A stretch of 64,000 nt of DNA from a virus. Lineage: Duplodnaviria > Caudoviricetes. The DNA lies in the IMG/VR virus record IMGVR_UViG_3300029286_001711; one strand, written 5' to 3'. Positions 2,864 through 64,000 of the stretch are shown here, one piece after another. The position numbers and the translations under genes were made by a program. How positions within the stretch are numbered: position 1 is the first letter of the stretch; every line of letters begins with the position of its first letter. The notes beneath the pieces were generated by a model. It ran no database searches, was not told where the DNA came from, and worked only from the letters and a program-made list of their open reading frames with translations.

Positions 2864-2868
2864 CTTAT

Positions 2869-4809
2869 ATGAAGAATGTGGTTAGAAAAATCTTAAAAGA
2901 GAATGATTTTGATTGGGTCGGTGATATATTAAATTCAGAATATTTCCCTGCAACACCAGATATGTTAACCGTAGGTACAAAAATTATTGTAGACGGACGT
3001 GAATTAGATGATGATGAAATTACCCTGGATGAATGGGAAATGGAACCTGGAACTATAATTTCTATTGAAAAATACAATGATAATGATATTATATTAGTTA
3101 AATTTGATAATTGGATTAGTCCAGAGGGTAACAATATTGTCTTAAACTCCAGCCCAATGTGGAAAAATAAAAGGGAGGAATGTGCCGGAGATAATTGTTG
3201 GTCTTTTGTGAGAGAATATAGAAAATACCCCAATGAAGTTGATATTGACATATACTTACTAAACCCTAATTATAAAGAAAAATTGAAAGAAGAAACTATA
3301 AGAAGAGAATTAAAAATGGAACTACCAGATTCCGTATTAAGAATGAACCGTATTTTTAAAGAAAACGGTCATGAATTATATGTTGTTGGTGGTGCTGTTA
3401 GAGATTTATTAAATAAACAAGAGCCAAAAGATTTTGATTTGGCAACTGATGCTACACCAGAAAAAGTTAAATCCATGTTACGTATGTATCGTACGATAGA
3501 TATGGGGGAACAATTCGCTATTGTTAATGTTGTTACAGAAAATGGTCAATATGAGATTGCCACATTCCGTAAGGATATTGGTAAAGGTAGAAGACCCGAT
3601 TCAGTAGAGTATACTTCAATCGACCAAGATGTATTACGTAGAGATTTAACAATGAATGCTCTTTTCTATGATATAGATAAGGGTGAAGTAGTTGACTTGG
3701 TTGGTGGTATTGGTGACATAGAAAGTAACATAGTTAGGACCGTTGGTTCCGCATCCGAACGCTTTGATGAAGATAAGTTACGTATACTTAGAGCACTTAG
3801 GTTTGCAGCTAGAGTGGGTTCTGAATTAGATAAAGACATTATTGATGCAATAACCAAAGATAAAACACCCATTAGTGGTAATGGTTTACCGTTATCTCAA
3901 GAAAGAATTAGAGATGAATTTTTAAAAGGTATTAAACAGGCACAATCTGTTGGTTATTTTACTCAGATGATTGACAAGTATAATTTATGGGATTGGATAT
4001 TCTCACGTCTAGTAGTTACAACGGAACCAATGATTGAGACTAAAAATCCTTTAATATTAATAGCTACTTTATTGAGAAGTAACGATGTTAGATTAGTTGA
4101 AAAAACTTTAGTTGACAGACTTAAGTATACTTCAGACGAGGGTAAACAGATTAGTTTCTTAATACAGTTTTTAGGTTTAAACTCTAGTAATGCATTTAAA
4201 TTGAGGGAAAAATTTGAAACTAGTAAATTAGATGAAACAACTTTAATTGATTTCGCTAGATTTAACGGTATGAATATGAAATTAGTCGAAGCTTTCATAA
4301 AATATCGTATTACTACATCTGGTGATGCTCTTAAAAGAAGGGGGTTAGTGGGTAAGGAAATTGGTAATGAAAAGGAGAGATTAGAAAAAGAGATTTTTGA
4401 TAAACTCATAACCGAATCTAAAAGAAGTGTCTCCTATTCAGCTATAGTATTAACTGAAGAATCTAGAAGTAGACTACTTGAGTACGTTAAGACACCTGGT
4501 AATGATTTATTTGCAACTTGGGAAACTTTAGCTCACCATATGACTATTAATATGGGACCATTAAAAGATGAATACCGACCATTATTAGGTCAGTCATTTG
4601 ATTTATTGATTACTCACATCGGTAGAACGGATAAAGTTTTAGCTGTTAAAGTAGATACCGAATTTAGAACCAAAAATTTAAACCCGCATATTACTGTGGC
4701 GGTAAATAAAGGTGAGGGTGGTAAACCAGCAATGGCAAATCAAATAGACCAATGGACCCCTGTATACCCTTTCGAAGTGGAAGGTAAACTAGAAGAAATA
4801 TATTTCTAA
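2869..4809 (+). CDS. cca: tRNA nucleotidyltransferase (CCA-adding/PolyA_pol family) with N-terminal extra module and C-terminal 2H phosphoesterase
   Basis: VGGAVRD, DFD, TFRKD, RRDLTMNAL, EDKLRILRALRF, SQERIRDE; C-terminal HMTI and HITV = two Hx(T/S) motifs. Confidence 0.88.
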   Translation: MKNVVRKILKENDFDWVGDILNSEYFPATPDMLTVGTKIIVDGRELDDDEITLDEWEMEPGTIISIEKYNDNDIILVKFDNWISPEGNNIVLNSSPMWKNKREECAGDNCWSFVREYRKYPNEVDIDIYLLNPNYKEKLKEETIRRELKMELPDSVLRMNRIFKENGHELYVVGGAVRDLLNKQEPKDFDLATDATPEKVKSMLRMYRTIDMGEQFAIVNVVTENGQYEIATFRKDIGKGRRPDSVEYTSIDQDVLRRDLTMNALFYDIDKGEVVDLVGGIGDIESNIVRTVGSASERFDEDKLRILRALRFAARVGSELDKDIIDAITKDKTPISGNGLPLSQERIRDEFLKGIKQAQSVGYFTQMIDKYNLWDWIFSRLVVTTEPMIETKNPLILIATLLRSNDVRLVEKTLVDRLKYTSDEGKQISFLIQFLGLNSSNAFKLREKFETSKLDETTLIDFARFNGMNMKLVEAFIKYRITTSGDALKRRGLVGKEIGNEKERLEKEIFDKLITESKRSVSYSAIVLTEESRSRLLEYVKTPGNDLFATWETLAHHMTINMGPLKDEYRPLLGQSFDLLITHIGRTDKVLAVKVDTEFRTKNLNPHITVAVNKGEGGKPAMANQIDQWTPVYPFEVEGKLEEIYF

Positions 4810-4810
4810 T

Positions 4811-4836
4811 AAAAAACCCCGATTTCTCGGGGTTTT
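4811..4836. terminator. Bidirectional intrinsic terminator
   Basis: AAAAAACCCCGA-TTTC-TCGGGGTTTT between convergent genes. Confidence 0.8.
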
Positions 4837-5278: not shown

Positions 5279-6433
5279 CTATTGTTTTATTTGCTCCATT
5301 GTTATTCCAACCTTGTCAAATACAGTTTCAATCATCACTTTTGATACACAATAAGGGTCACAGTTAGCCGCTGGTCTTCTATCTTCAAAATAACCCCTCT
5401 CGTTGGTATAAGTAGCAACAGGTATACGAATACTCGAACCCCTATCACTATTACCAAAACTAAATTCTTCCATACTTGAAGTTTCGTGTCTACCTGTTAA
5501 ACGTTTTTCATTTTCAACACCATATACATCGATGTGTTCTTTGTGACGTTCTTTTAGTTTTTCACAAGCTTCAAGAATCTTTTTTAATCCACCTTTATCA
5601 CGCATTTCTTTTGTTGAAAAATTAACGTGACAACCACTACCGTTCCAATTACCTTCAACTGGTTTTGGACTGTAAGAAATACCGAACCCATGTTTTTCAA
5701 CAACTCTTTCAAGTATGTATCGTGAAAGCCATAACTGATCCGAACCGTTAAGTGCTGTAACAGGACCTATTTGGTACTCCCATTGAGCAATTAAAACTTC
5801 AGCATTAATACCACCAATCATTAAACCGATTTCAGCACATTTATGTAAATGTTCCTCAACTAATTCTCGTCCGATAACATTTAAACCACCCACACCACAA
5901 TAGTAGTCACCCTGTGGTCTTGGTTTACCATCTGGTCCTGGATTAAACCCTAACGGGATTCCACCACCATATTTAAAATGATTTGTTTTATCTGGAGCGT
6001 GTGTAAGTACATATTCTTGCTCCCATCCGAACCACGGAACTTCTTTTAAGTTCGCATCGTATTCTTTTAATTTGAGTTCATTAAGAAGGTCTCTTAATTT
6101 AGCTCTTGTATTTGATTTATGTGGGGTTTTACCATCTGGGTTGAATACCTCACAATAAACTAATTTATGTTGATTCCCTCTAAAAGGATCGTCTACAACA
6201 TAGACGGGTTTTAGTACACAATCTGTACCCTTAAAACCATACTTTTCTTCGTCTCCAGCTTGTTTAGTTGAACTGCCATCAAAACTCCATAACGGATAAG
6301 ATTCAGGATACCCTTGTTTAGGTTGCCCATCTGTTTCTAGGATATCAGTATTATCCACCACTTTAGTTTTAGACCTAATATTTTGTGGGATATTACCATC
6401 AAGCCAAATGTACTCTAAAAATACTTTACTCAT
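5279..6433 (-). CDS. glnII: Glutamine synthetase type II
   Basis: EYIWLDG, RSKTK, WSFDGSST, FGWEQEY, INAEV, QWEYQIGP, WNGSGCH, RLTGRHET, RGSSIRIP, EDRRPAANCDPY. Confidence 0.95.
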   Translation of the reverse strand: MSKVFLEYIWLDGNIPQNIRSKTKVVDNTDILETDGQPKQGYPESYPLWSFDGSSTKQAGDEEKYGFKGTDCVLKPVYVVDDPFRGNQHKLVYCEVFNPDGKTPHKSNTRAKLRDLLNELKLKEYDANLKEVPWFGWEQEYVLTHAPDKTNHFKYGGGIPLGFNPGPDGKPRPQGDYYCGVGGLNVIGRELVEEHLHKCAEIGLMIGGINAEVLIAQWEYQIGPVTALNGSDQLWLSRYILERVVEKHGFGISYSPKPVEGNWNGSGCHVNFSTKEMRDKGGLKKILEACEKLKERHKEHIDVYGVENEKRLTGRHETSSMEEFSFGNSDRGSSIRIPVATYTNERGYFEDRRPAANCDPYCVSKVMIETVFDKVGITMEQIKQ

Positions 6434-8292: not shown

Positions 8293-8331
8293 AATTCTTT
8301 TTTTATATAAATATTATAATTTTATAGTAAG

Positions 8332-10266
8332 TTAAAATTCTTCTTCATCTTCTTTATCTTCATCACCGATTAGGTTTTTTATACCTTCAGTCATCATCAT
8401 AATATCTTCGTTTTTACGTCTACCTTCTAATAAAAGTTTATCAATTATGTTCTTATCCTGATTACGGAAACCCTCTCCGAATCCACCTGTTTCAGGTGTT
8501 CCAGCCTCAGGACCACCAACCTCTTCTCCGCCTAGACCAGCATCTTCTCCACCTAAACCAGCATCTTCTCCACCTAAACCAGCATCTTCATCTCCACCAA
8601 AATCGAGACCACCGCCTCCACCTCCGCCGAAACCTCCACCACCTAAATCCATTCCACCTTCATCTCCACCACCTTCTTCGGTACCAGCTGTTGCTTGTTC
8701 ACCACCACCAATTTCACCGTAAAGACTATCAACTCTATTAAAGAATCCAGTCTTTTTAATTATAGACGCGGTATTCTCTAATTCAGCTGATGCGGCCCTT
8801 TCCATTCTTTGTTGTTCAAGGTCAGTTTTAATATCCTCATCAGTCCAGTTAAAGATGTTTTTCTTCGCCCAAGTATGTGATGATGGAGCAATACCACCAT
8901 CAACTTGTGAAACTAAATCTTTATAAAGTAAAACTTTTTCTTTCCATTGTTCTACTTTCAACATCTCACCTTGAGTAGATGGGTTGGTTAGATTTAAAGT
9001 GAAATTATTTAAATCATCTGTAAAACCTAAAATATATAAATGAATAATAGCTAATTTATTCAATTCCTGAATCATTGATTGTTGAATACGGTTAATAGTT
9101 CTAGCAAAACGTATATCTAACAAGGCTAAATTTTTTCCGTCACCAGCTGCCTCATCAAAACCTAAGAATGGTTTTGGTACTCTAAGAGCTGTTAATAACT
9201 TTTTCTGAATATATTCAATGTCAGCAATTTGGTCCAAATTACTGGCACCCGCCAACGTTTCAATTGGGTTTGGTGCGTTTGGATCTCTAACGGGAACAAA
9301 ATAATCTTGGTCGACTGCTAACGTATTATAACGTAAATCAACCTGACCAGTTTTTTGGTCTACAACCTGATTTCTTTTGAATTTATTAGCTACTTTTTGT
9401 ACGTAAGCATCAACGTCTTTATCATCAATGTTACCCACATATATTTTAAATACACGTCTTTCTGGTGCTCTTACAACACGATAAACTAACATTGCATCTT
9501 CAGAAAGTAATAATTGTTTCCAAATTCTTCTTGCTTTCTCTAAAACGGAAGTACCGTACGGTAATCTTCTATCATCACCCAATAATCTAAAATGGGCAAC
9601 TTCCCATGGGTTAAAATCTAAACTTTTATCACGCCAGTGGAAGGTTACTTGTTTTTTCTTAGTTGTAGCTCCATCACTTTCTTTAGTTTGTTGTGGAAAC
9701 ATACCTTCTTCCTTACGTTCCATCTCAATATTAGTTAACTGAGATGAACCGATAATACCTCTAGAGTGGTCAATTTTTAAGAATACAAAATTATCACCAT
9801 ACTTACACGTATTACGAGTCCACATTGGTAAGTTAGTTTGAATATCTATAATATTATAAAATAAATCTTCTAATACGTTTTTAACTCTTTTTGAATTTGA
9901 TTGAATAGTTAAAACCTTCCCTTGTTCACTTGGTGTACAAGATTCTTCGGACATAATATCTAAAGCGGCAGCTATTTCTGGTGTAAATTCCATTGCCTCA
10001 TAATCCATATATGACGCAATTCTTGATGTTTCGTAATAGACGGCTTTTTGGTACAATTCACTATCAACCCTAGCCCATTGAGCTTCAAGATAGTTTTGTT
10101 GTTGTCCTTCTAATTTTTCCTTTTCATACTGTTGCTTAGAGTTAGTGGTGATTACATCACCGTCACCTAAAGTGTATTTAGGGGTTGTTCTTTGAACTGG
10201 TTTGTTTTGTCCAAACAAGTAGAAGAGTTTTTGATATACTGTTAAATCTTTATTATTATCTGCCAT
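8332..10266 (-). CDS. Portal protein (T4 gp20-like)
   Basis: PEIAAALDI, YGDNF, HFRL, EDAMLVYRVVRAPERRVFKIYVGN, QDYFVPVR, IETLAG, KLLTALRVPK. Confidence 0.93.
   Translation of the reverse strand: MADNNKDLTVYQKLFYLFGQNKPVQRTTPKYTLGDGDVITTNSKQQYEKEKLEGQQQNYLEAQWARVDSELYQKAVYYETSRIASYMDYEAMEFTPEIAAALDIMSEESCTPSEQGKVLTIQSNSKRVKNVLEDLFYNIIDIQTNLPMWTRNTCKYGDNFVFLKIDHSRGIIGSSQLTNIEMERKEEGMFPQQTKESDGATTKKKQVTFHWRDKSLDFNPWEVAHFRLLGDDRRLPYGTSVLEKARRIWKQLLLSEDAMLVYRVVRAPERRVFKIYVGNIDDKDVDAYVQKVANKFKRNQVVDQKTGQVDLRYNTLAVDQDYFVPVRDPNAPNPIETLAGASNLDQIADIEYIQKKLLTALRVPKPFLGFDEAAGDGKNLALLDIRFARTINRIQQSMIQELNKLAIIHLYILGFTDDLNNFTLNLTNPSTQGEMLKVEQWKEKVLLYKDLVSQVDGGIAPSSHTWAKKNIFNWTDEDIKTDLEQQRMERAASAELENTASIIKKTGFFNRVDSLYGEIGGGEQATAGTEEGGGDEGGMDLGGGGFGGGGGGGLDFGGDEDAGLGGEDAGLGGEDAGLGGEEVGGPEAGTPETGGFGEGFRNQDKNIIDKLLLEGRRKNEDIMMMTEGIKNLIGDEDKEDEEEF
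8537..8590 (-). repeat. 21-nt tandem repeat encoding LGG(E/D)EDAG-like units in the portal tail
   Basis: ACCAGCATCTTCTCCACCTAA repeated about 3 times. Confidence 0.85.
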
Positions 10267-10584: not shown

Positions 10585-12408
10585 TTATTTTCTTACTATT
10601 TTTTTATTTTTTTCTTTATCCTTAAACCCACTAAGTCCCATAAAAACCCAGTTATGTTCTGATGTTGCTGTTTGAACGTGTCTAGCAAGTTCACCACTGT
10701 TTAAAAGACCGTTATATTCGGTTGTATTTAACTGACCTATAGATTCACTAGTTGTAGTTGATACAACCCAAGAGTCTAACATTGCTTTAGCTTGACCCTT
10801 ACTTTTTTCTAAATCCTTAAAAGAAGTTTGACTAACGAAACAACACATCGCAATGCCCATTAAAAGGTCATCATGATACCCTTTCATATGGTCTGGTCTT
10901 CCGTTTTTAAATACGAAAGTATCCATCTCAGCAAGTGCTCTAATAGACCTAACTTTAAATGAATCTAAACGAACAGCCTCCTCAAGTTTGGTTATGATTG
11001 TATTTCTATTTTTTTGGAAGTTAAGACCTGGTAATTTACCATCTCTCATATGTTTTTCCAATGTCTTATTGTTTGTTACTGAATCAATACCTATTACCAC
11101 ATCGTAGTACATTTTTTTTGATGAGTAACCAAGTTCAATCATTTTTAACACCGATGAAACACCGTAACCACCAGTGATATCGACAACAACAAAGGCTTCA
11201 TACCTGTTACCATACTCTGTGGCAATCTCACCTAAAATATCTGGTGCAATTTTACCGTGATATTCAGCAACCTGATGTCCTGTTGTAAAATCCATAATAC
11301 AGATAGTACCAAAGTCATCTGCAGAACCCGACGCAGCATCAACAGCCATAATATATTCATGACCGAGAATTGGATCTTCCCAAATCCACATACCATTATC
11401 CAACCATTCAGTTCTGATAGGGTCTTTAACGTTATTTTTTCTGTGGTAATCAATATATTTGTGGTTGATAACGTTGTCACCTGAACCGTTAAATGCACAC
11501 AATAGTTCTTGTGCAATCATTCTGGCGTTGTTATTTAACTGACCACACATCATCTCAAACCAAGGTGATGTTGGTGTCCAACCTTCATTTTCTAATCGTT
11601 CAAATTGAGTGAAATCCATCTCAACCATCTCATCAATAACCTCATCAGCCTCATTCTTTTTCTGCCATTTCATACCTTTGTTATAACGAGGATCTTGAAA
11701 CCATCTCATTTCAACAATATTAAATGGGTTATTGGTTTTTTCTTTTGTTGTGGCCGCCATATACGTTTTATAGTATAAAGGATCCATACCATTTGGTGTA
11801 CTAATTAAAATCGCCCTACCACCTGTAGAAAGGGCTGGTTGAGCTGCGGAGTAAACTTCTTCACCTCCTTCAATGTAAGCTGCCTCATCCATCACAAGTA
11901 GTGTTGGTGTGTAACCACGTAAGGCATCCATTGAAGTAGCTACGGCTTTTACCTCAGAACCGTTCTTTAATCTATAATGTTTTTGTGAATTTTTTTCTAC
12001 ATCAAACCAAGAGGTATCGTTACCAGTTGCCCACACATTCATCCAGTCGGGAAGTTGAGCGGTAAAATCTTTAACTTTTTTAAGGAATTCAATAGCTGTT
12101 TCTTGTTTGTTTGCCAAAATAAGTACCCTTTGTGGGTTATTTGGGTCAGCTAAAGCCGTCATAACGGCGATATAAGCCGCAGTTGTGGTTGATACACCCG
12201 CCTGACGTGGTTTCATCACAATATTAAAACGATTGTCTTTATACGCCTTAATTAATTCTTTCTGTTTAGGGAATAATTTGAAATTAACGAAACTCTTTTG
12301 TGTTTGGTCAAATGTTGTAAGGTAACCCTCAATTGCGTGAGCAGGATCTTTAATACATTTACCTATCTCTAGAAGTTTCTGACCCTTATTTTGTGGAATT
12401 GTAGACAT
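10585..12408 (-). CDS. terL: Terminase large subunit
   Basis: KPRQAGVST (Walker A region), LVMDEAA (Walker B), ISTPNG, nuclease AVDAASG...DD, HDDLLM. Confidence 0.93.
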   Translation of the reverse strand: MSTIPQNKGQKLLEIGKCIKDPAHAIEGYLTTFDQTQKSFVNFKLFPKQKELIKAYKDNRFNIVMKPRQAGVSTTTAAYIAVMTALADPNNPQRVLILANKQETAIEFLKKVKDFTAQLPDWMNVWATGNDTSWFDVEKNSQKHYRLKNGSEVKAVATSMDALRGYTPTLLVMDEAAYIEGGEEVYSAAQPALSTGGRAILISTPNGMDPLYYKTYMAATTKEKTNNPFNIVEMRWFQDPRYNKGMKWQKKNEADEVIDEMVEMDFTQFERLENEGWTPTSPWFEMMCGQLNNNARMIAQELLCAFNGSGDNVINHKYIDYHRKNNVKDPIRTEWLDNGMWIWEDPILGHEYIMAVDAASGSADDFGTICIMDFTTGHQVAEYHGKIAPDILGEIATEYGNRYEAFVVVDITGGYGVSSVLKMIELGYSSKKMYYDVVIGIDSVTNNKTLEKHMRDGKLPGLNFQKNRNTIITKLEEAVRLDSFKVRSIRALAEMDTFVFKNGRPDHMKGYHDDLLMGIAMCCFVSQTSFKDLEKSKGQAKAMLDSWVVSTTTSESIGQLNTTEYNGLLNSGELARHVQTATSEHNWVFMGLSGFKDKEKNKKIVRK

Positions 12409-17244: not shown

Positions 17245-17541
17245 TTATTTAATTGAAAATGTTCCAGTTGAATTACCTGGATCGTTTGATAATGGGTTTT
17301 CCCATACCCCTATTGATGTTCCACTAGTAGCTCCAAATCTCTTTCTTCCGATTAGAAATGCCGCACCACTAATTAAACCACCATTACTAACACCAACTGG
17401 TATTATAACTGGTGCTGCCATAGCTGGTAATATTACATCATTAATTGTTACAGCAATCCCGTTGGGGACTAAGACAGCGTGATAATCATAACTTGTATAA
17501 TTAGCTGATGCTACTGCGTGAATTACTTCTCCTGTTACCAT
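17245..17541 (-). CDS. Hypothetical protein (possible structural)
   Basis: 98 aa; ATATTTAT at 17558-17565. Confidence 0.55.
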   Translation of the reverse strand: MVTGEVIHAVASANYTSYDYHAVLVPNGIAVTINDVILPAMAAPVIIPVGVSNGGLISGAAFLIGRKRFGATSGTSIGVWENPLSNDPGNSTGTFSIK

Positions 17542-18341
17542 TTTAAAATGTTTTTATATAAATATCTGTTATGTTCCAATGTTACTGATTTATCGTAAGC
17601 AACTGTTTTAATGTCAGAAAGTCTATCTAACATACCGTTACGTCTTAAAACTTTGAATACCATGTTCTCTACTGAAAACTCACCATTAGCATCTAAACCA
17701 GCTTGACGCATTTTTTTAATTTTATCTTTAATTTTGTCAGATTTCTCAACTACAGAATCGTAATTCTTAGAATCTTTCATTTCATGAAAAAGATCATCAA
17801 TAGCATCCATAATACGTTCTGATTTTAATTTAACGTTTATGTTATCGATTTTAATTGGTTTTTTCTCTGGTTGAACTACCCATTCATTTCTTAATATAGA
17901 ATAAACACCAGTAGATACGTGTTCTTCTTTGATGTCTTGTACATATATTTCAATATCAAAGCCATAAATTTTTATATCATGAGAATCGTTCCAAGCTGTG
18001 CTTTTAGTTTTTAAAAAGTCTTGAATTAAAGTCTCATCAACGGGAACCTCTGTATAATCAATAAGGATATGTAAATCTACATCGGAGTATTTAGACCAAT
18101 TATAATTAGCCAAACTTCCTGTTAAACAAATATCTTCGATATCAACCCCAGGAAGTTCCAATCCTTCAAAATAATCATCAGCAATTTTAAGTAAGGTCTT
18201 TCTAACTTCTGGTTGTAATTTTTGGTTCTCATCCCAGATTTTTGGGTTTAAGGCATCTTGCATTTTAAAACCAGTTAAATCTATCGACCTATCACTTTTA
18301 CCGACTTTCTTTACTTCTTTTATTTTTACCTTTTCTTTCAT
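17535..18341 (-). CDS. Pol-beta-superfamily nucleotidyltransferase
   Basis: TGSLANYNWSKYSDVDLH (GS...DxD) and DIEIYVQD third acidic residue. Confidence 0.75.
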   Translation of the reverse strand: MKEKVKIKEVKKVGKSDRSIDLTGFKMQDALNPKIWDENQKLQPEVRKTLLKIADDYFEGLELPGVDIEDICLTGSLANYNWSKYSDVDLHILIDYTEVPVDETLIQDFLKTKSTAWNDSHDIKIYGFDIEIYVQDIKEEHVSTGVYSILRNEWVVQPEKKPIKIDNINVKLKSERIMDAIDDLFHEMKDSKNYDSVVEKSDKIKDKIKKMRQAGLDANGEFSVENMVFKVLRRNGMLDRLSDIKTVAYDKSVTLEHNRYLYKNILKW

Positions 18342-18377: not shown

Positions 18378-18710
18378 ATGAGAAAAAAGATTATTTTAAA
18401 AGAACATCAAATTAAGAAACTTATTGAAGCCAGAATTAATGATTTCAATGTAGAAGATATTGCTAAACGCCTAGAATCAATTGATTGTTCAGGTGAGGAT
18501 TTAAAGTATTTAGTTACAAATATTCTTAAAAAATACGGATATGAGGGTGTTAAAGTCCTTTTCTTAGGACATGATGAACAAACAAAAGACCTCCGATATG
18601 TTGCTTATACCGAAGGCCCAATATTTGTTTATAAAACTAAATCAGAAGTTAGTCCTGAAGACAGACCTTGTCTTACTGTTTACGAAGTAAAAGTATTCCA
18701 ACAAATCTAA
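18378..18710 (+). CDS. Hypothetical protein, putative head cargo
   Basis: Leader MRKKIILKEHQIKKLIE. Confidence 0.55.
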   Translation: MRKKIILKEHQIKKLIEARINDFNVEDIAKRLESIDCSGEDLKYLVTNILKKYGYEGVKVLFLGHDEQTKDLRYVAYTEGPIFVYKTKSEVSPEDRPCLTVYEVKVFQQI

Positions 18711-38099: not shown

Positions 38100-39002
38100 A
38101 TGAAAATAGGTTACGCTTGTATCAATATGACCCTAGGTGAACAAAAAATCACCACCAATCGTGGTATGGTCAAACGTACTTTTGACTCCAAAGGTGTTAA
38201 GTACGCATCAGAGTTAGCACTCCAAAATGTTCGTGATTTACTCCAAGTTATTAATTGGAATCAACGTAATAATATTAATTTTTATCGTATGTCTTCTGAC
38301 ATGTTTCCGTGGATGTCAGAATACAAATTTGATGACCTACCTGACATTCAACTTATTCGTAATATACTTTCTGGTATTGGCCGTATTACACATTCGTTAC
38401 ATTACGACCATCGTCTTACTTTCCATCCCGGCCCATTCAATGTTTTAGCATCACCAAACCAAGATGTTATTACAAAAACTGTGGCCGAACTTGACCGTCA
38501 TGCCTATATCATGAATATGCTTGGTTTACCTAAGTCTCCGTTCTCCAAAATCAATATACATGTTGGTGGTGCTTACGGTAACAAGTCTGACGCACTTAAA
38601 CGTTGGGTCGATAACTTCTCTTTATTACATGATGACACCAAAGCTCGTCTTACTATTGAGAATGACGATAAACCAAATATGTTTACTGTTGCCGACCTTA
38701 TGTATATATACGAACATACTGGTATACCTATTGTATTTGACTATCATCACCACAACTGTCATAGTGGCGGTATGTCCACCCATGACGCTTTACAGTTAGC
38801 TATATCTACATGGCCTGACGGTATCACACCTATTGTTCATGTATCAGAGCCACGTGATGACCAAAATGTACGTGCACATCATGACTATATACGTAACCAA
38901 GTTGACACTTACGGTTATGATTTAGACCTTATGTTCGAGGCCAAAGCCAAAGAATTGTCTGTGTTAGAGTATCGTAAGAATTTTAATACGTTATTGACGT
39001 AA
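38100..39002 (+). CDS. uvsE: UV damage endonuclease (UvsE/UvdE)
   Basis: GYACIN, FYRMSSDMFP, RLTFHPG, INIHVGG, LTIENDD, IPIVFDYHHH, HVSE, DLMFEAKAKE. Confidence 0.93.
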   Translation: MKIGYACINMTLGEQKITTNRGMVKRTFDSKGVKYASELALQNVRDLLQVINWNQRNNINFYRMSSDMFPWMSEYKFDDLPDIQLIRNILSGIGRITHSLHYDHRLTFHPGPFNVLASPNQDVITKTVAELDRHAYIMNMLGLPKSPFSKINIHVGGAYGNKSDALKRWVDNFSLLHDDTKARLTIENDDKPNMFTVADLMYIYEHTGIPIVFDYHHHNCHSGGMSTHDALQLAISTWPDGITPIVHVSEPRDDQNVRAHHDYIRNQVDTYGYDLDLMFEAKAKELSVLEYRKNFNTLLT

Positions 39003-39464: not shown

Positions 39465-40742
39465 ATGAGAAATATATTGAATCGTATGCAAGAATTGGTC
39501 GATAGGTTACAAACCAATTCATCTTCTAACATTAAAAAAGAATTTCTTCAAGAGTATCTTCATGACAGTGACCTTAAAAAACTCATGATGTATGTTCACA
39601 ATCCGTTTTATCAATTCCATGTAACTTCTGATAATTGTAAGAAGTTCGAAAACATGCATATTCAAAATGTTGACTGGAATGTTTTTGATTTATTAGACGC
39701 ACTACGTACACGTAGAATAACAGGTCATGAGGCCATAGGTAATATCAATACCTTTATAATGGCAAACCCAGAACATAAACAACTTATTTACAACATTATC
39801 GATAAAGACCTAAAATGTCGTGTAGGAGAGAGTTTAATTAATAAGGCAGTACCCAATACCATTCCGACATTTGACGTTGCCTTGGCAGAGAAATTTGAAC
39901 CTGAGATGGTAAACTTCGAGACTGAAGAGTGGTATGTTTCTCGTAAACTCGATGGAGTTCGTTGTATCGTTGTTATTGATGAAAACGGTAAAGTAACTTC
40001 GTTTTCACGTCAAGGTAAGATTTTTGAAACACTCGGTAAGATAGAGGAGTTTTTCTCATCGTATAAAGTTAGGGGTATTGTTTTTGACGGTGAAATTTGT
40101 ATGGTTGATGAAAAAGGTGACGAAGATTTTCAATCCATCATGAAAGAAATCCGTAGAAAGGATCATACCATTCAAAATGTTAAGTATAAAATATTTGACT
40201 GTTTAAGTTTAACTGAATTTTATAATCAAAGAAGTATTCGTAAACTATCTGAACGTTTAGATACTATTAGTCATTTTGATAGTATTGTTGAATACCTACC
40301 ACAAGAACGAATTCGTGACATCAAACATTTTCAAGAATGGATTGACATGGCCAATGAGGGTGGTTGGGAAGGTGTTATGTTACGTAAGAATGTTGGTTAC
40401 AAGGGTAAACGTAGTAAAGACCTTTTAAAAGCTAAGAAATTTCATGACGCTGAATATGTTGTAGAAGGAATAACCTTCGGACCGATTCGTAGATTAGTAG
40501 AAGGTCAAGAAGTTACTGAAACTATGACCTCACAGATTATGATTAAACATAAAGGGTTTGAGGTTGGTGTTGGTAGTGGGTTTAGTATGGAACAACGAAT
40601 GGAATTTCACCAAGACCCAAGTAAGATTGTTGGTAAAACAATTACCGTACAATACTTTGAAGAAACTCACAATCAAGAAGGTGGCATTAGTCTTAGGTTC
40701 CCAGTTTTAAAACATATCTACGAAAATGGTAGAAATGTCTAA
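39465..40742 (+). CDS. lig: ATP-dependent DNA ligase
   Basis: SRKLDGVR (KxDG), VFDGE, IFD, EGVMLR, LLKAKK, OB-fold VGSGF, LRFP. Confidence 0.93.
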   Translation: MRNILNRMQELVDRLQTNSSSNIKKEFLQEYLHDSDLKKLMMYVHNPFYQFHVTSDNCKKFENMHIQNVDWNVFDLLDALRTRRITGHEAIGNINTFIMANPEHKQLIYNIIDKDLKCRVGESLINKAVPNTIPTFDVALAEKFEPEMVNFETEEWYVSRKLDGVRCIVVIDENGKVTSFSRQGKIFETLGKIEEFFSSYKVRGIVFDGEICMVDEKGDEDFQSIMKEIRRKDHTIQNVKYKIFDCLSLTEFYNQRSIRKLSERLDTISHFDSIVEYLPQERIRDIKHFQEWIDMANEGGWEGVMLRKNVGYKGKRSKDLLKAKKFHDAEYVVEGITFGPIRRLVEGQEVTETMTSQIMIKHKGFEVGVGSGFSMEQRMEFHQDPSKIVGKTITVQYFEETHNQEGGISLRFPVLKHIYENGRNV

Positions 40743-40763
40743 AAAATTGATTATATTTGTAAT

Positions 40764-41231
40764 ATGAAAATTATTTTTATAGATATTGATGGTGTATTGG
40801 CTACCGCTCCCTGCTGGAATATGAGTAGAGACAATAAATGGGATGCCTATCCTTTCGATAAGAAAGCTGTAAAAGTTTTAAATGAAATCTTAAGTGAAAC
40901 TGGTGCTGAAATGGTATTATCTTCCGATTGGAAATATTACTATACCATGGACCAAATAAAAGAAATCTTCACAGAGTTGAATAGTGTTATTAAAGCACCA
41001 TTCGATCAGACACCTATGTTTCCGACTAACGCTATGAATTTAGGTGGTGGTAGAGTTAATGAGGTTAAGGCCTGGTTAGAGGATAACGTAGAAAAATTGG
41101 GTGTAACACATTGGGTTGCTATTGATGATTTAGATATGTTTGAGTTAGAAAACTTTGCTCATTGCCCAAGACAAATGGAAGGTATTAAACAAAGTGGCCT
41201 TAAAGATAAAATACTTAAATTTTTAAGTTAA
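40764..41231 (+). CDS. HAD domain protein (Swiss Army Knife RNA-repair-like HAD)
   Basis: IIFIDIDGVL, VLSSDW, WVAIDD; TATATTTG at 40752. Confidence 0.8.
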   Translation: MKIIFIDIDGVLATAPCWNMSRDNKWDAYPFDKKAVKVLNEILSETGAEMVLSSDWKYYYTMDQIKEIFTELNSVIKAPFDQTPMFPTNAMNLGGGRVNEVKAWLEDNVEKLGVTHWVAIDDLDMFELENFAHCPRQMEGIKQSGLKDKILKFLS

Positions 41232-48603: not shown

Positions 48604-48947
48604 GATATAAAGAAGGGGAGGAAGTTTCATTTAAAGTTTTATCACCAATTGATGAATCCGTCAATGGGAAAGTGGTGGTAGCAATTCCAGATGGAATACT
48701 TAAATGGGAAGAATATGGTGAACCGTATTATTTAGTTGAATACCGTGAAGGTTGGGATTACCATTTAATGGTAATGGATGAATTAATAGGTTTAATAGGG
48801 GAAGATAATATATCTAAACTAGAAGATGAAAAAAAATATTGGTTTGTTCGTGAAAAAAACATTGTTGGTAAGTGGGATGGAAAACGGACAATACCAGAGT
48901 TAATGAATTTTAGGTTATTAAAATATAACTTTAAGAAAAATTCTTAA
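48600..48947 (+). CDS. Hypothetical protein (SH3/KOW-like)
   Basis: MRYKEGEEVSFK...GKVV; basic C-terminal tail. Confidence 0.55.
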   Translation: MRYKEGEEVSFKVLSPIDESVNGKVVVAIPDGILKWEEYGEPYYLVEYREGWDYHLMVMDELIGLIGEDNISKLEDEKKYWFVREKNIVGKWDGKRTIPELMNFRLLKYNFKKNS

Positions 48948-49894
48948 TCGTCTAACTTGTTCCAAACATCACCAGTATAGAGTTTCCAGACACCCCTTTC
49001 TAGGTGATTTAATACTGATTGTAAATTGTAAGTGGTACTTTGGTTTTTACCGTTATGAATCCACGATACACCAATAATCGGTCTTCCTTTAAAATCTTCT
49101 TTTATTGAATCTATTGTGTAAACAATAAAACTACCCACAGAATCTTCATCAGCAAGTGTAAATTCTAGTCCTAATAAACTTTTTGGATCTTCCATTTTAT
49201 TTTCATTAATATTTTTTCGGCCTATAAAATCTGACCATATAATATGTATTGGTTTACCTAGCTTATTACTTACTGATACACCTAAAGAATCATGATAAGG
49301 CCAACTAGCTGAACGTGTTAGTGTTTGATCTTCAATATTTTCAGGCCAGATAGATTGTATAGACCTTATCCCTTTAGTTTTTTCAATCTTCGTACCTTGT
49401 TCACCCCATCTAAATCCTTGTTTGAATAACCATTTTTGTATTTCAATGAAGTCTTCATCGGTATCAAAATCAATATGCCAAGGCTTACCTTTTAAACCGT
49501 CATACCCATTAATAACATCTTTTGCCCATTCAAAATCATCTTCAGATTCGTATAGTTTATCAAAAGCTTGATTAACATCTGGGATGACACTATAACCATC
49601 AAGCATTCTATATCCGTTACCTTCAAACCATTCAAGCCTATCATTTAAGTTATCATTATCTGTACCCTCACGATAATCGTATAGTGTGAACTGGGTTATA
49701 TAGTTATCGTATATTCTAATATATCCAATACTATCTTCAGTATTAACCATGATGTCTCTTATGTAATCATAACTTTTATAGTTTTTACGTTCATTACTAT
49801 CAAACAATAAATCAATAATTTTAATACCCTCATTACCAGATAGTGGTGGGTTGAAAGTTAATATTGTATCTCTATCGAAAAAGGCAGATATCAT
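48944..49894 (-). CDS. Three-module polyprotein-like protein
   Basis: Linkers FDKLYESEDDFEWAK and NINEN; start reassigned to 49894 after ATATTTAT 49900-49907. Confidence 0.7.
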   Translation of the reverse strand: MISAFFDRDTILTFNPPLSGNEGIKIIDLLFDSNERKNYKSYDYIRDIMVNTEDSIGYIRIYDNYITQFTLYDYREGTDNDNLNDRLEWFEGNGYRMLDGYSVIPDVNQAFDKLYESEDDFEWAKDVINGYDGLKGKPWHIDFDTDEDFIEIQKWLFKQGFRWGEQGTKIEKTKGIRSIQSIWPENIEDQTLTRSASWPYHDSLGVSVSNKLGKPIHIIWSDFIGRKNINENKMEDPKSLLGLEFTLADEDSVGSFIVYTIDSIKEDFKGRPIIGVSWIHNGKNQSTTYNLQSVLNHLERGVWKLYTGDVWNKLDD

Positions 49895-49928
49895 TAACAA
49901 TAAATATTCAGGAAAACGGAAAGGGGTG

Positions 49929-50848: not shown

Positions 50849-52723
50849 TTACTTGATAGGTTTAACACCTTGATTTGTCATAACAAAATGACCACCGTCT
50901 TTAACACGAATCATATGGTGAACAGGTAAACTATCGGCGAAGTAGATATCTTCTGTCCATAACTTAGTATCATGATAACATTCATCACCATCATCTGGGA
51001 TAACTAATATACCCTTTTTATATAGTTCATCAATACATTTTCGATCACCTTGGGGTTCTCCACTACGATCTTGACCAATTATACATTCCCTAACCCCAGG
51101 GATATTGAAATAATCCCATAACGTGATGTTTTCTGGATAGTAATGTCCTCTTCTTAATACAACCCATAAATTTTGATCTACGTTAGATGGTGGGGTAATG
51201 TCTCTAGCCCATTCAAACTCGTCTTCTTCAGATTCTTTAAGATTTTCTTGGGGTGGGGTTATATATTTAACTCTTAATATACCATCAGTTCCAATTGTAG
51301 AGGAACTTACTTCGAAATAATTACCAGTTGATGCGGTTCTCCAATTATTAGGTCTATCTGATAATGAAGCTAACCATTCTAATATTATATTGTCAATCTC
51401 ACCCGTACCATTCCCACTATAGACATCTCTTTTATAGGTAACTCGGTCAACTTTAAATTCCTCACCAGTTAAATTAAACAATAATTTTTTACTATCCCTA
51501 ACTTCACCGTATAAGGCAATCTCATCACCTTTTACTAATGCATCTTTTTCCCATAAATAACCTAAAGTGATTGGTGTGTTAATCAATTGTTTAGCCCATT
51601 CAAAATCTTCTTCAGATTCATATAGTTTACTAAAGGCATCATCCGAACTCATCTTAGAAAACTCAAATTGACCTCTACTTAAATAAACCCACCTACCAGT
51701 TTCATTTAATCTAATATGAAATACTACACCAAAGGTACATTCACCAGGTTTTATTTCGGTAATCTTTTTATATATACCACTTCTACCACTAATATCTAAA
51801 ATTGTTCCAATTTGTTCCCATGATGGGACATAAACATTGTCACCAACATGAATTGTTCTTACACCTTCAGATTCAAATAATCTATTAAAATTATCAATAG
51901 TTGTTTTAATATTATCATCTTTAATAAAATAAAATCCCCTATTTAAATCACCAATGAAATCATCCCATTCTAAAGAACCCTTAGCACCCTCCCATTTAAT
52001 CTTAAGTTCTTCACCGTCATCATCAACTATAGTATAAAAAATTCCAGTCTCCTCATATTCTGTAGGGTGATAAAACTGTAACCCAAGAATATCTTGAGTT
52101 CTTAAGAAACTGTAATCATTTTCAGATTCATATAATTGTTTATACAGGGTATCAAAAATTTCAGAAGTGGTTGTACCGTTAACATAATCCCAACCATCAT
52201 AAAGTTCCCAATAATTTGGTGTGTCTTTCATTTCATGTTCAGCATCATTACCAGTACCCCAAGTTACACTTTTCCTAGAATCAATAAAAATAGTATTTAA
52301 TTTAATAGAGGAATAACTTCTACTGTTGAGTTTATTACCACTACTCCATTTAATACCAGGAAACATTTCTGTCAACCTATCGTAAATCATTTCTTCCTGT
52401 TCAGAAGTGGGACGGGGATCGAATTTTAAAATTATACCCCTTTCTTTTACTGCGTCATTAGATTCATTAATTGTTTCTTTTATAACGGAAGAAATATCAA
52501 CAGTAGGCAAATCAGTTATAATCCAAGTATCATTTATATAATTAAGAAAAGTTTCCACATCATAGTCAGCCATATCTTCACCTTTATAACGATGTGGCCA
52601 GTCAATAAAGACATGACCATCATAATATGAGTGAATAAGATAATCCCATTTACGTTCACCATCTCTCTTAAGACGAAAGTGTAAACCGATCAAATAGGGG
52701 ATATCATCAATGGTGTATTTCAT
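50849..52723 (-). CDS. Six-module polyprotein-like protein
   Basis: Linkers INES, LYES, LFES, LYESEEDFEWAK, LKESEEDEFEWAR; start reassigned to 52723 after ATATTTAT 52729-52736. Confidence 0.75.
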   Translation of the reverse strand: MKYTIDDIPYLIGLHFRLKRDGERKWDYLIHSYYDGHVFIDWPHRYKGEDMADYDVETFLNYINDTWIITDLPTVDISSVIKETINESNDAVKERGIILKFDPRPTSEQEEMIYDRLTEMFPGIKWSSGNKLNSRSYSSIKLNTIFIDSRKSVTWGTGNDAEHEMKDTPNYWELYDGWDYVNGTTTSEIFDTLYKQLYESENDYSFLRTQDILGLQFYHPTEYEETGIFYTIVDDDGEELKIKWEGAKGSLEWDDFIGDLNRGFYFIKDDNIKTTIDNFNRLFESEGVRTIHVGDNVYVPSWEQIGTILDISGRSGIYKKITEIKPGECTFGVVFHIRLNETGRWVYLSRGQFEFSKMSSDDAFSKLYESEEDFEWAKQLINTPITLGYLWEKDALVKGDEIALYGEVRDSKKLLFNLTGEEFKVDRVTYKRDVYSGNGTGEIDNIILEWLASLSDRPNNWRTASTGNYFEVSSSTIGTDGILRVKYITPPQENLKESEEDEFEWARDITPPSNVDQNLWVVLRRGHYYPENITLWDYFNIPGVRECIIGQDRSGEPQGDRKCIDELYKKGILVIPDDGDECYHDTKLWTEDIYFADSLPVHHMIRVKDGGHFVMTNQGVKPIK

Positions 52724-52750
52724 TAACAATAAATATCAGAAATTCAGGAA

Positions 52751-62134: not shown

Positions 62135-62545
62135 TCATTTCATTTTACACCAATACTTACTTGGGATTAACTCTTCCGTAAACCATTTGAAGGAAACATC
62201 TTCGTAACCATTCTTATCAGCATCTTCACTTTCAGGGTCTTCATAATCATAACACCTTGAGGATTCTATTGAATAGTCTTTAGCGTTGTAGGTTGTATTT
62301 TCAGGATCACAAGGTTTATACTTAATAATAAGCCCACCTTTTTCATCGGGGATAATATCAGCAATTGTCAGAACGTATCTAGCATCTGTTGGTTGATAAT
62401 CATCAGGAGATGGGTTGGTTTTCTGGGGATTATTATTATCAACAACATAGAAAACATCACCAATGTTAATGTTTAAACCTGATACTGCCTCTCTAGCCCA
62501 TTCCAGGTCGTCGATTTCTTCTTTTATGATTTTTCTAATATCCAT
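62135..62545 (-). CDS. Single-module member of the EDDxEWA family
   Basis: MDIRKIIKEEIDDLEWARE + NIGDVFYV. Confidence 0.7.
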   Translation of the reverse strand: MDIRKIIKEEIDDLEWAREAVSGLNINIGDVFYVVDNNNPQKTNPSPDDYQPTDARYVLTIADIIPDEKGGLIIKYKPCDPENTTYNAKDYSIESSRCYDYEDPESEDADKNGYEDVSFKWFTEELIPSKYWCKMK

Positions 62546-62546
62546 T

Positions 62547-63932
62547 TTATTCTATAACAATAATATCTACCATATCTTCATTAATCCAATAAGGTAGGTC
62601 TAAAACATTATCAGTTAAACACTCAACAAGTTGAGCACTCAGAACATCCTCATCGATATCCATACCAAAATTAAAACCAGCTTCACAATCAGAACCACTT
62701 CTCACCATCTGTTTAATTTTACCTATTCTAAATACTTGTTTAAACCACCATTCAACATTACCATTAAATGAACACAAATCTAAGGATTCTTTAAAATAAT
62801 CACTACCATTTGATTTTGGGATAAGTTTAAATTTTAGTTTATCAAGATTTTTAGGGTTACTTTGTTTAAAGACATCCCAATAGTTTTCAACCCCAGAAAC
62901 CAAATCTCTGGCCCATTCCAATTCATCTTCTTGTTCTCTAATTTTACTAACTCTCTTCCTAGCTGGTCTATACCCGTCAGCATTAATTATAAAATGTTTA
63001 CCATCTGATTTTCTCACCAGATGTGAAATTCTTTCATCGTATTCATTAGTCTCCGTGTTATTGATTAGGTAACAAATATCACCGTTTTCTGGTGTCCCTA
63101 ATGATGGTACTTGTTGATGTAAAAATAATGTCCCAACATCACCTTTAATGCCCTCACCCATTTCATATCTACGTGATAAATTATGATAATCTTCACTATC
63201 CCACCAATGTTTTCCATATTTCTGATTAAACTCTTCCATACCTGGAATTTTTACATTTAACATAAATTCTGTATAGGTCGGATAATAAGCCGCACTTCTG
63301 GTAACCACAACTTCTGGAAATTTAGTTAGTTCCTTAGCCCATTCAAAATCATCTTCAGATTCATTTAGATTACTCTCCACAACTTTCCAAGCACCACTAT
63401 TCAAAATCTTTAAAAGTTTGCCTATATCAAAAGGTGTACCTTTTGATGGGTATGAAGCCGGTAAGTTTGCTGGTAAAATATATACAACCCTATCTGTAAC
63501 TTTTGTTATAACAGCTAATATTGGTGAACCACCTGGTATTTTTGATGGTATTGAAAATTTCTGACCAACTTTAAGAAGATTGGTACTATCTAAGTCTTTA
63601 ACCCAAGATAAATCATCTTCAGATTCATATAACTGGCCAAAGAAATCGGTATTTTGAATATCAGGTGGAATTAGAGTGAACCAATCTTCATAGTTTCGAC
63701 CAACCACATCTTTTTGTACAGTAAATCTAGCAGTATGTTGACCACGATTTCTAACCCCTCCAATACTAATGATATCTTCTCCACGATTACCACCCCTAGA
63801 TTCAAAGTTGGTAACTTCAACATAATCACCCACCTTTGGCCCAACACCTTCCGTATGGCAATACAAAAAATCTCCGACCTTGGGTACCGGCTTTAATGAT
63901 TCTTTAATTATTTTACGGATAGAGTTTCTCAC
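62547..63932 (-). CDS. Four-module polyprotein-like protein
   Basis: Start reassigned to GTG 63932 after ATATTTAT 63937-63944; IIKES leader; linkers LYESEDDLSWVK, LNESEDDFEWAK, IREQEDELEWAR. Confidence 0.75.
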   Translation of the reverse strand: MRNSIRKIIKESLKPVPKVGDFLYCHTEGVGPKVGDYVEVTNFESRGGNRGEDIISIGGVRNRGQHTARFTVQKDVVGRNYEDWFTLIPPDIQNTDFFGQLYESEDDLSWVKDLDSTNLLKVGQKFSIPSKIPGGSPILAVITKVTDRVVYILPANLPASYPSKGTPFDIGKLLKILNSGAWKVVESNLNESEDDFEWAKELTKFPEVVVTRSAAYYPTYTEFMLNVKIPGMEEFNQKYGKHWWDSEDYHNLSRRYEMGEGIKGDVGTLFLHQQVPSLGTPENGDICYLINNTETNEYDERISHLVRKSDGKHFIINADGYRPARKRVSKIREQEDELEWARDLVSGVENYWDVFKQSNPKNLDKLKFKLIPKSNGSDYFKESLDLCSFNGNVEWWFKQVFRIGKIKQMVRSGSDCEAGFNFGMDIDEDVLSAQLVECLTDNVLDLPYWINEDMVDIIVIE

Positions 63933-64000
63933 GTTAATAAATATCCACATAAAAAAAGAAGAACACATCTCCTTTATTTTTTCATCCCTAAATATTCTTT

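Follow-up and report, generated by a model that had tools for sequence, protein, structure and literature searches.

The 64,000-nucleotide stretch of viral DNA analyzed here (Duplodnaviria; Caudoviricetes; IMG/VR virus record IMGVR_UViG_3300029286_001711; hereafter the window) carries at 2869-4809 on the + strand a single open reading frame (ORF) of 646 residues, in which a short leader and an N-terminal module (N module) precede a class II nucleotidyltransferase and a very small 2H phosphoesterase domain (mini-2H). This fusion gene had been proposed, from the DNA sequence alone, to encode a CCA-adding enzyme joined to a 2H cyclic phosphodiesterase that repairs tRNA 3' ends. The proposed three-part architecture of N module, nucleotidyltransferase core and 2H was borne out by matches to PF01743, phrog_2244, the solved structure 1miv and the CNPase fold. 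All of the residue strings quoted in that original prediction could be located (KLKE|E at residues 138-142, KLITE|S at 512-517, HHMTI at 556-560 and PHITV at 606-610). The N-terminal string that it described as EDDFEW-type reads ENDFDW at residues 11-16, and the exact EDDFEW was found in other ORFs of the window. A protein identical to the fusion is encoded on 10 metagenome contigs of up to 201-212 kb, and homologs with 36-90% identity to it preserve the frame; the chain is under purifying selection, with both catalytic sites intact.

The nucleotidyltransferase core

The core spans residues 150-514 (3316-4410, + strand), and its head domain covers residues 170-290 (3376-3738, + strand). The head matched the PF01743 (PolyA_pol) profile over its whole length (positions 1-126) with 121.3 bits against a cut-off of 23 (E-value 4.1e-35), and residues 167-502 matched the tRNA nucleotidyltransferase family phrog_2244 (E-value 6e-52). 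In a PDB sequence search the top-scoring solved structure was that of the Bacillus CCA-adding enzyme (1miv; E-value 5e-32), to which motifs A-D of the core aligned residue for residue: motif A as GGAVRD (174-179) followed by D-F-D (188-190), motif B as RRD (257-259) and motif D as EDKLR (301-305). Past motif B, the GG-bearing stretch GGIGD (279-283) also aligned with 1miv. These matches agree with the class II core of CCA/poly(A) polymerase type that had been predicted. No HD domain was matched in the fusion protein by Pfam at E-values up to 1, and not a single histidine is present in residues 291-516, in keeping with the proposal that the 2H domain takes the place of the HD domain of E. coli Cca.

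A different reading of the same core is that it is a PcnB-like poly(A) polymerase, in which case the cyclic ends of cleaved host or phage RNAs would be opened and then tailed for decay or altered stability, and tRNA repair would not be involved. The top NCBIfam match was indeed to pcnB (TIGR01942, 184 bits, cut-off 305), next to 182 bits for the CCA model NF009814 (cut-off 290), and E. coli PAP I nearly equaled the CCA enzymes in the PDB search (1e-30 vs 5e-32). However, every match was below its equivalog cut-off, so neither label is earned, and the loop between motifs A and B aligned to that of the Bacillus CCA enzyme with a gap of only 2 residues. Furthermore, PHROG groups the core with tRNA nucleotidyltransferases, several fused relatives also match tRNA_NucTran2_2, and the many CCA-less tRNA genes of relatives (described below) require a CCA enzyme. 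We regard a poly(A) polymerase without a part in tRNA repair as decidedly improbable.

The nucleotidyltransferase gene is split in several relatives directly after a conserved T-F-R in the motif A-B loop (L015:6297-7172, L016:6297-7358 and L017:6297-7358), where the inserts encode a GIY-YIG-type homing endonuclease; a shorter insert is found at the same position in another relative (L024:6297-6668). The first piece of the split gene has an added short tail, and the second, which the gene caller reports as a separate 440-residue protein, has its own Met and a head of ~25 residues before the conserved RRPD. This arrangement resembles a "gene in pieces" or an intron.

The mini-2H domain and its recurrent partners

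The C-terminal domain occupies residues 517-646 (4417-4806, + strand) and contains two HxT motifs, H557-M-T559 (4537-4545) and H607-I-T609 (4687-4695), both of which are invariant in an alignment of 34 homologous domains that reaches down to 36% identity. The AlphaFold model of the domain had a pLDDT of 91 and a pTM of 0.83, and a Foldseek search with this model returned 2H proteins only, the top 50 being CNPase and LigT-like entries. An exhaustive structural comparison (VIA-align) put the CNPase catalytic domain 2xmi first (Z 12.8, rmsd 2.3 Å, 127 of 137 residues), followed by Acb1 (7t27, Z 7.1), a Deinococcus cyclic phosphodiesterase (CPDase; 7.0) and LigT (6.2); further matches at Z of 7.1 or less included bacterial and plant CPDases, Usb1, and the viral 2'-5' phosphodiesterases ns2 and VP3. 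Because the HxT motifs are invariant, the model is confident and CNPase is far ahead in the fold comparison, the C-terminal domain is a stripped-down 2H closest to the CNPase/Trl1-CPD branch, and the genuine 2H domain with intact catalytic motifs claimed in the original prediction stands.

The only Pfam family matched by members of the domain alignment was PF08302, the CPD of fungal tRNA ligase (30 of 34 members at E-values up to 1, the best being 1.5e-6), and this phage's own 2H (residues 510-646) scored below the cut-off of that family (14.6 bits vs 23). With this domain below the cut-off while 30 of its 34 relatives match, mini-2H forms a family related to PF08302 yet distinct from it. PDB sequence searches with the single 2H sequence and with the profile found nothing meaningful, and neither PHROG nor NCBIfam gave a match for the domain. 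From fold and genomic association, we predict that mini-2H acts as a 2',3'-cyclic phosphodiesterase on RNA ends.

A search with the mini-2H profile against 1.84 billion representatives identified a large family of 2161 clusters (50% identity) at E-values up to 1e-3, or 1157 at E-values up to 1e-10, for which Pfam and PHROG offer no dedicated model. Domain partners were counted in the best 150 representatives of this family, 89 of which were stand-alone proteins of 200 residues or less and 43 of which were longer than 350 residues. A class II nucleotidyltransferase was also present in 27 of these 43 long proteins, and Pfam confirmed the nucleotidyltransferase in 13 of 16 examined proteins. The mini-2H domain may lie either N- or C-terminal to the nucleotidyltransferase, and the pairing occurs in at least two unrelated phage lineages. 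When whole-protein homologs of the fusion were considered instead, the core was found with the same C-terminal 2H in 79 of the best 120, most of them 490-530 residues long and without the N module. The two domains are thus paired repeatedly, across many uncultured phages.

Partners of related function were also found next to mini-2H genes. On one contig a nucleotidyltransferase gene is directly followed by a stand-alone mini-2H gene; on two sister contigs a HAD_SAK_1 phosphatase gene comes directly after the mini-2H gene; elsewhere a stand-alone mini-2H is the last gene of a cassette that also holds an RNA ligase, a Pol-beta nucleotidyltransferase, Pth2 and PNK-HAD; and in one protein (P0135) mini-2H is fused to HAD_SAK_1 itself. 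We consider this repeated pairing, independent of domain order, to be the strongest argument that both activities act on the same RNA end, and the fusions and adjacencies with class II nucleotidyltransferases, HAD_SAK phosphatases and RNA-repair cassettes support the tRNA 3'-end repair that had been proposed for the fusion enzyme. The HAD_SAK associations point to a HAD "Swiss army knife" phosphatase as the enzyme that finishes what mini-2H begins.

These associations also bear on a reading in which the two domains have independent activities, the nucleotidyltransferase maturing CCA-less phage tRNAs and the 2H serving as a counter-defence nuclease for nucleotide second messengers, whether Acb1-like or directed at 2',3'-cNMP or 2'-5' oligonucleotides. 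Such a division of labor is consistent with the 89 stand-alone small proteins among the best 150 representatives, and with the large tRNA arrays of relatives, which mostly lack CCA, so that a maturation role needs no damage. Acb1, the anti-CBASS 2H nuclease of phages (PF23474), is likewise a small 2H protein of similar size and gave the second-best fold match. However, its structural score is far below that of CNPase (Z 7.1 vs 12.8), PF23474 was not matched by any of the 34 aligned 2H members, and the partners of mini-2H are RNA-end enzymes: the fusions and adjacencies with nucleotidyltransferases in both orders, with HAD_SAK and with ligase/PNKP cassettes point to RNA ends and not to free nucleotides. 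Independent activities therefore seem to us quite unlikely.

Some of the proteins recovered with the mini-2H profile are giants of up to 2332 residues, in which mini-2H shares the chain with a class II nucleotidyltransferase, a GNAT domain and a LigT-type 2H (L028:8001-14999 and L034:2-2710). They belong to a different phage lineage, since their contigs carry PolB and baseplate genes. The contig described above, on which mini-2H is a gene of its own after the nucleotidyltransferase, contrasts with these fusions.

Head-gene neighborhood, leader and N module

The gene divergent from the fusion gene (2006-2818, - strand) encodes a T4 gp21-type prohead core serine protease (PF03420 Peptidase_S77, E-value 6e-29; phrog_207, E-value 7e-42). 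Further along the window are genes for a Portal_T4 protein (8332-10266, - strand) and the large terminase (10585-12408, - strand), and Gp23 is located just upstream of the window, so that, by sequence match, the fusion gene is surrounded by a T4-type head module. The source is a large uncultured T4-like phage, and the GC content of the window is ~32%. Between protease and portal the fusion gene is the sole gene on the + strand; the same interval holds a gene for a Gln-synt_C glutamine-synthetase-like protein (5279-6433, - strand), which is kept in all close relatives. The order of genes in all of these relatives is SprT-like (+), DUF4494, a 155-residue ORF, the S77 protease, CCA-2H (+), a 143-residue ORF, the glutamine-synthetase-like gene and the portal. 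Directly past the stop codon of the fusion gene, at 4811-4836, a hairpin (CCCCGA/TCGGGG, 4817-4832) with an A run and a T run at its sides can be read from the sequence, and it has the form of a bidirectional intrinsic-terminator-like element.

A second gene antisense to the fusion was considered and rejected. The ORFs at 2865-3251 and 3963-4409 are interrupted by stops in relatives, and a 68-residue antisense ORF at 3666-3872 stays free of stops only in the stretch where sense-strand conservation is highest; since the antisense frames are either broken or open only under such constraint, there is no second gene at this locus.

The motif ATATTTAT lies 5 nucleotides 5' of the fusion start codon (2856-2863, + strand), inside the 50-nucleotide divergent gap shared with the protease gene, and is conserved upstream of the fusion orthologs. 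The window holds 31 copies of it (for example at 8307, 10298, 12431, 17558, 25602 and 29149) where 15.7 would be expected, and 0 of 100 shuffles reached 31. Many of the copies are on the coding strand 5-33 nucleotides before start codons, on both strands of the window and including those of the portal, terminase and SprT-like genes. We take ATATTTAT to be a putative promoter or late-timing mark. Its sharing suggests that the fusion gene is co-regulated with structural genes, although late timing, which had been part of the original prediction, is not established by it. The T4 late promoter motif TATAAATA was also tried and was not significantly enriched (21 matches vs 14.9 expected; 6 of 100 shuffles reached 21).

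The N-terminus of the fusion protein begins with a basic leader of 11 residues ending I-L-K-E (2869-2901, + strand), which is conserved in orthologs and modeled as disordered (pLDDT ~42). The N module that follows (residues 12-141; 2902-3291, + strand) is modeled as an SH3-like beta-barrel (AlphaFold pLDDT 79) with invariant W16, C105, C110 and W-S-F (111-113), and it ends KLKE; its best folds were CAP-Gly, Tudor and CarD barrels, with Z of only 5-6. It had no match in Pfam, PHROG or NCBIfam, and in the ESM Atlas a look-up returned no usable match and a fold search gave only weak rows (TM below 0.45). Orthologs have 0, 1 or 2 copies of the module, with the leader kept at the N-terminus in each case and its codons varying synonymously among relatives. 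Because the module is inserted exactly after the leader, and every module copy again ends (L/I)KE, the internal KLKE|E repeats the end of the leader. This undercuts the proposal that the enzyme is bracketed by cleavage sites, as does LITE|S, which is present only in the closer clade and has MG-K as its counterpart in the distant one. The SH3-like module is an optional accessory.

We also asked how far these N-terminal elements recur on other proteins of the window. The N module as a portable domain had to be rejected, given that an HMM run against all window ORFs found only its own gene and a profile search of longer proteins found only CCA-2H orthologs. Basic leaders similar to that of the fusion, ending (I/L)-(L/I)-(K/R)-E, are found on the SprT-like metallopeptidase (651-1124, + strand) and on the ORFs at 18378-18710 (+ strand) and 62135-62545 (- strand), the last of which starts with the leader and a D-D-L-E-W-A-R variant. 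A strict form of the leader pattern, picked post hoc, has 3 N-terminal matches in the window vs 0.25 expected. An acidic-aromatic junction motif, L-x-E-S-E-(D/E)-D-F-E-W-A-(K/R), occurs inside the multi-module proteins at 50849-52729, 48944-49900 and 62547-63968 (all - strand), and the modules that follow it share no detectable homology, either among themselves or with the N module of the fusion. The idea of a portable module holds for the short junction motif only, not for the N domain.

The leader and the head-gene setting together raise the question of whether the enzyme is capsid cargo. The leader would then be this clade's capsid targeting signal, shared with other enzymes such as the SprT-like protein and acting like that of T4; the gp21-type S77 protease would cut at ILKE|N, KLKE|E and perhaps LITE|S, so releasing the leader and possibly the SH3-like module(s) as well; and the enzyme would be pre-packaged and injected with the DNA, an option already raised in the original prediction. 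If so, tRNA 3' ends would be restored ahead of the expression of any phage gene. This proposal is compatible with any of the enzymatic readings. The parallel is with the T4 internal proteins and Alt: in T4, N-terminal propeptides of 10 residues direct proteins that are not related to one another to the prohead core and are cut off by gp21 after Glu (PMC9026906). Here too the phage encodes an S77 protease, and the protein starts with a short peptide ending in aliphatic-x-Glu. The T4-type head module with Peptidase_S77, Gp23 and Portal_T4, the fixed slot of the gene within the head cluster in all close relatives, the similar leaders on unrelated window proteins (3 vs 0.25, with the post hoc limit just given), and the conservation of the leader with or without N modules whose copies end (L/I)KE all argue for it, as does the combination of I-L-K-E at residue 11 with the protease at 2006-2818, although this last is a weak criterion for so common a motif. 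On the other hand, [ILV]xE is very common in a Lys/Glu/Ile-rich proteome, and the leader does not resemble the T4 signal in sequence. An IRKILKE-type element, sometimes not at the extreme N-terminus, is also carried by CCA-only homologs of other phages and may be a plain part of the enzyme, and an enzyme made late would be equally useful inside the infected cell. We judge packaging and injection unlikely. Cleavage between core and 2H is far less likely still, as the more distant clade with 2H lacks LITE|S and cutting there would undo a fusion that selection has kept.

Proposed tRNA 3'-end healing and comparison with known systems

Information on the tRNA genes of this clade came from a relative (G001) of 318 kb that is 96% complete, shares synteny with the window and encodes an ortholog 60% identical to the fusion protein. 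We found 26 tRNA matches in this genome, and the encoded CCA was absent in ~18 of the 22 genes that were checked. An array of 22 tRNA genes takes up 20 kb of the genome (L025, G001:C1:2001-22000), mostly without encoded CCA and with an A-rich run directly after the discriminator base. The genome also carries a HAD_SAK_1 gene. RtcB and Tpt1 were not found in four related records, two of them fragments, and G001, one genome without RtcB and Tpt1, had a ligase-like match below threshold only. With RtcB, Tpt1 and a clear RNA ligase all missing from G001, the 2H in this clade therefore does not lead into a sealing pathway.

The window itself contains a HAD_SAK_2 phosphatase gene of the "Swiss Army Knife RNA repair" HAD type (40764-41231, + strand; PF18143, E-value 3.2e-24, 86 bits, cut-off 27.5). 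It begins 21 nucleotides downstream of a gene for an ATP-dependent ligase (39465-40742, + strand) with DNA_ligase_A_M and OB domains and a weak RNA_ligase match, and the pair (39465-41231) is possibly a nucleic-acid end-healing and sealing pair. We consider HAD_SAK_2 a candidate partner of the fusion enzyme because mini-2H is fused to HAD_SAK_1 in P0135 and mini-2H genes adjoin HAD_SAK_1 genes. Elsewhere in the window are a gene for a UvdE UV-damage endonuclease (38100-39002, + strand; E-value 7e-62) and one for a stand-alone Pol-beta-type nucleotidyltransferase with weak Pfam matches (17535-18341, - strand; phrog_36119).

Taking these observations together, we think it rather probable that the fusion is a bifunctional enzyme by which a large T4-like phage heals and rebuilds tRNA 3' ends, and we infer its substrate, product, order of steps, phosphatase partner and biological trigger as follows. 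The 3' end of a tRNA would be clipped by a metal-independent ribonuclease, leaving a 2',3'-cyclic phosphate, which the C-terminal CNPase-like mini-2H would open on the truncated tRNA. CNPase and Trl1-CPD open 2',3'-cyclic phosphates to a 2'-phosphate, and by analogy the product of mini-2H would be a 2'-phosphate with a free 3'-OH. A separate phosphatase would be needed at this point, because the 2H is not expected to remove a phosphomonoester; the phage HAD_SAK_2 is the candidate to strip it, with a host enzyme as the alternative. The class II nucleotidyltransferase core would then restore CCA, and the same core probably also matures those phage tRNAs whose genes lack CCA.

Several points weigh against this interpretation. 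At the level of sequence, the nearly equal NF009814 and pcnB scores do not separate CCA-adding activity from PcnB-type poly(A) polymerase activity. No tRNA gene is present within the 64-kb window. A CNPase-type 2H would by analogy yield a 2'-phosphate, yet no phosphatase is fused in this protein, and HAD_SAK_2 is 36 kb from the fusion gene, beside an apparently ordinary DNA ligase, making its link to the fusion enzyme weak. The trigger, a nuclease of the host leaving a cyclic phosphate at tRNA 3' ends, is hypothetical, and so are the host nucleases cutting CCA ends that the original prediction gave as the target.

If the bifunctional enzyme is as we propose, the locus points to a third route of tRNA repair, in which healing is coupled directly to CCA rebuilding. 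The pairing of mini-2H with class II nucleotidyltransferases and HAD_SAK phosphatases would yield a three-enzyme pathway, and such a pathway implies that hosts attack tRNA 3' ends with ribonucleases leaving cyclic phosphates. It also poses the question of whether a CCA-adding enzyme can extend a 2'-phosphorylated end.

A known route of phage tRNA repair is that of T4, where Pnkp and a ligase mend cuts in the anticodon loop. T4 Pnkp/Rnl1 and the jumbo-phage "RNA repair syntax" resemble the system proposed here in that a phage end-healing enzyme together with nucleotidyl transfer restores damaged tRNA; they differ in that Pnkp/Rnl1 seals an anticodon-loop break, whereas here healing is coupled to rebuilding of the 3' CCA. 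The jumbo-phage survey of Iyer et al. 2021 names CCA-adding enzymes, 2H phosphoesterases and HAD "Swiss army knife" phosphatases as separate repair parts (PMC7824862), and its text does not describe a CCA-2H fusion. The architecture is likewise not described in the full-text literature that we searched, although a figure in Burroughs & Aravind 2016 (NAR) may draw it. Among 50,697 deposited phage records, none aligned with the fusion protein beyond its core, and the 2H domain alone had a single match among deposited phages, a hypothetical protein of a crAss-like phage; the healing part is thus a very small CNPase-like 2H of a large family that is almost absent from deposited phage genomes.

Mini-2H shares with CNPase and Trl1 CPD its membership of the 2H superfamily, with 2xmi as its best fold match, PF08302 as the only Pfam family found and two HxT motifs. 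It differs from them in length, with ~130 residues vs ~210-250, and in its partner, which is a nucleotidyltransferase and not a ligase or kinase; its 2'-phosphate product is assumed from the analogy with these enzymes. E. coli Cca is a class II nucleotidyltransferase with an HD healing domain, and it is reported by Yakunin et al. 2004 to have 2',3'-cyclic phosphodiesterase, 2'-nucleotidase and phosphatase activities. As in the phage protein, one chain combines a class II nucleotidyltransferase with a phosphoesterase for blocked 3' ends, and the cores are homologous (NF008137, E-value 3e-23). In E. coli Cca, however, the HD domain is inside the body of the enzyme, and the SH3-like N module and leader are missing, whereas the phage enzyme has no HD and carries a 2H appended after the tail. 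The closest characterized analog of the fusion is E. coli Cca, with a different phosphoesterase fold.

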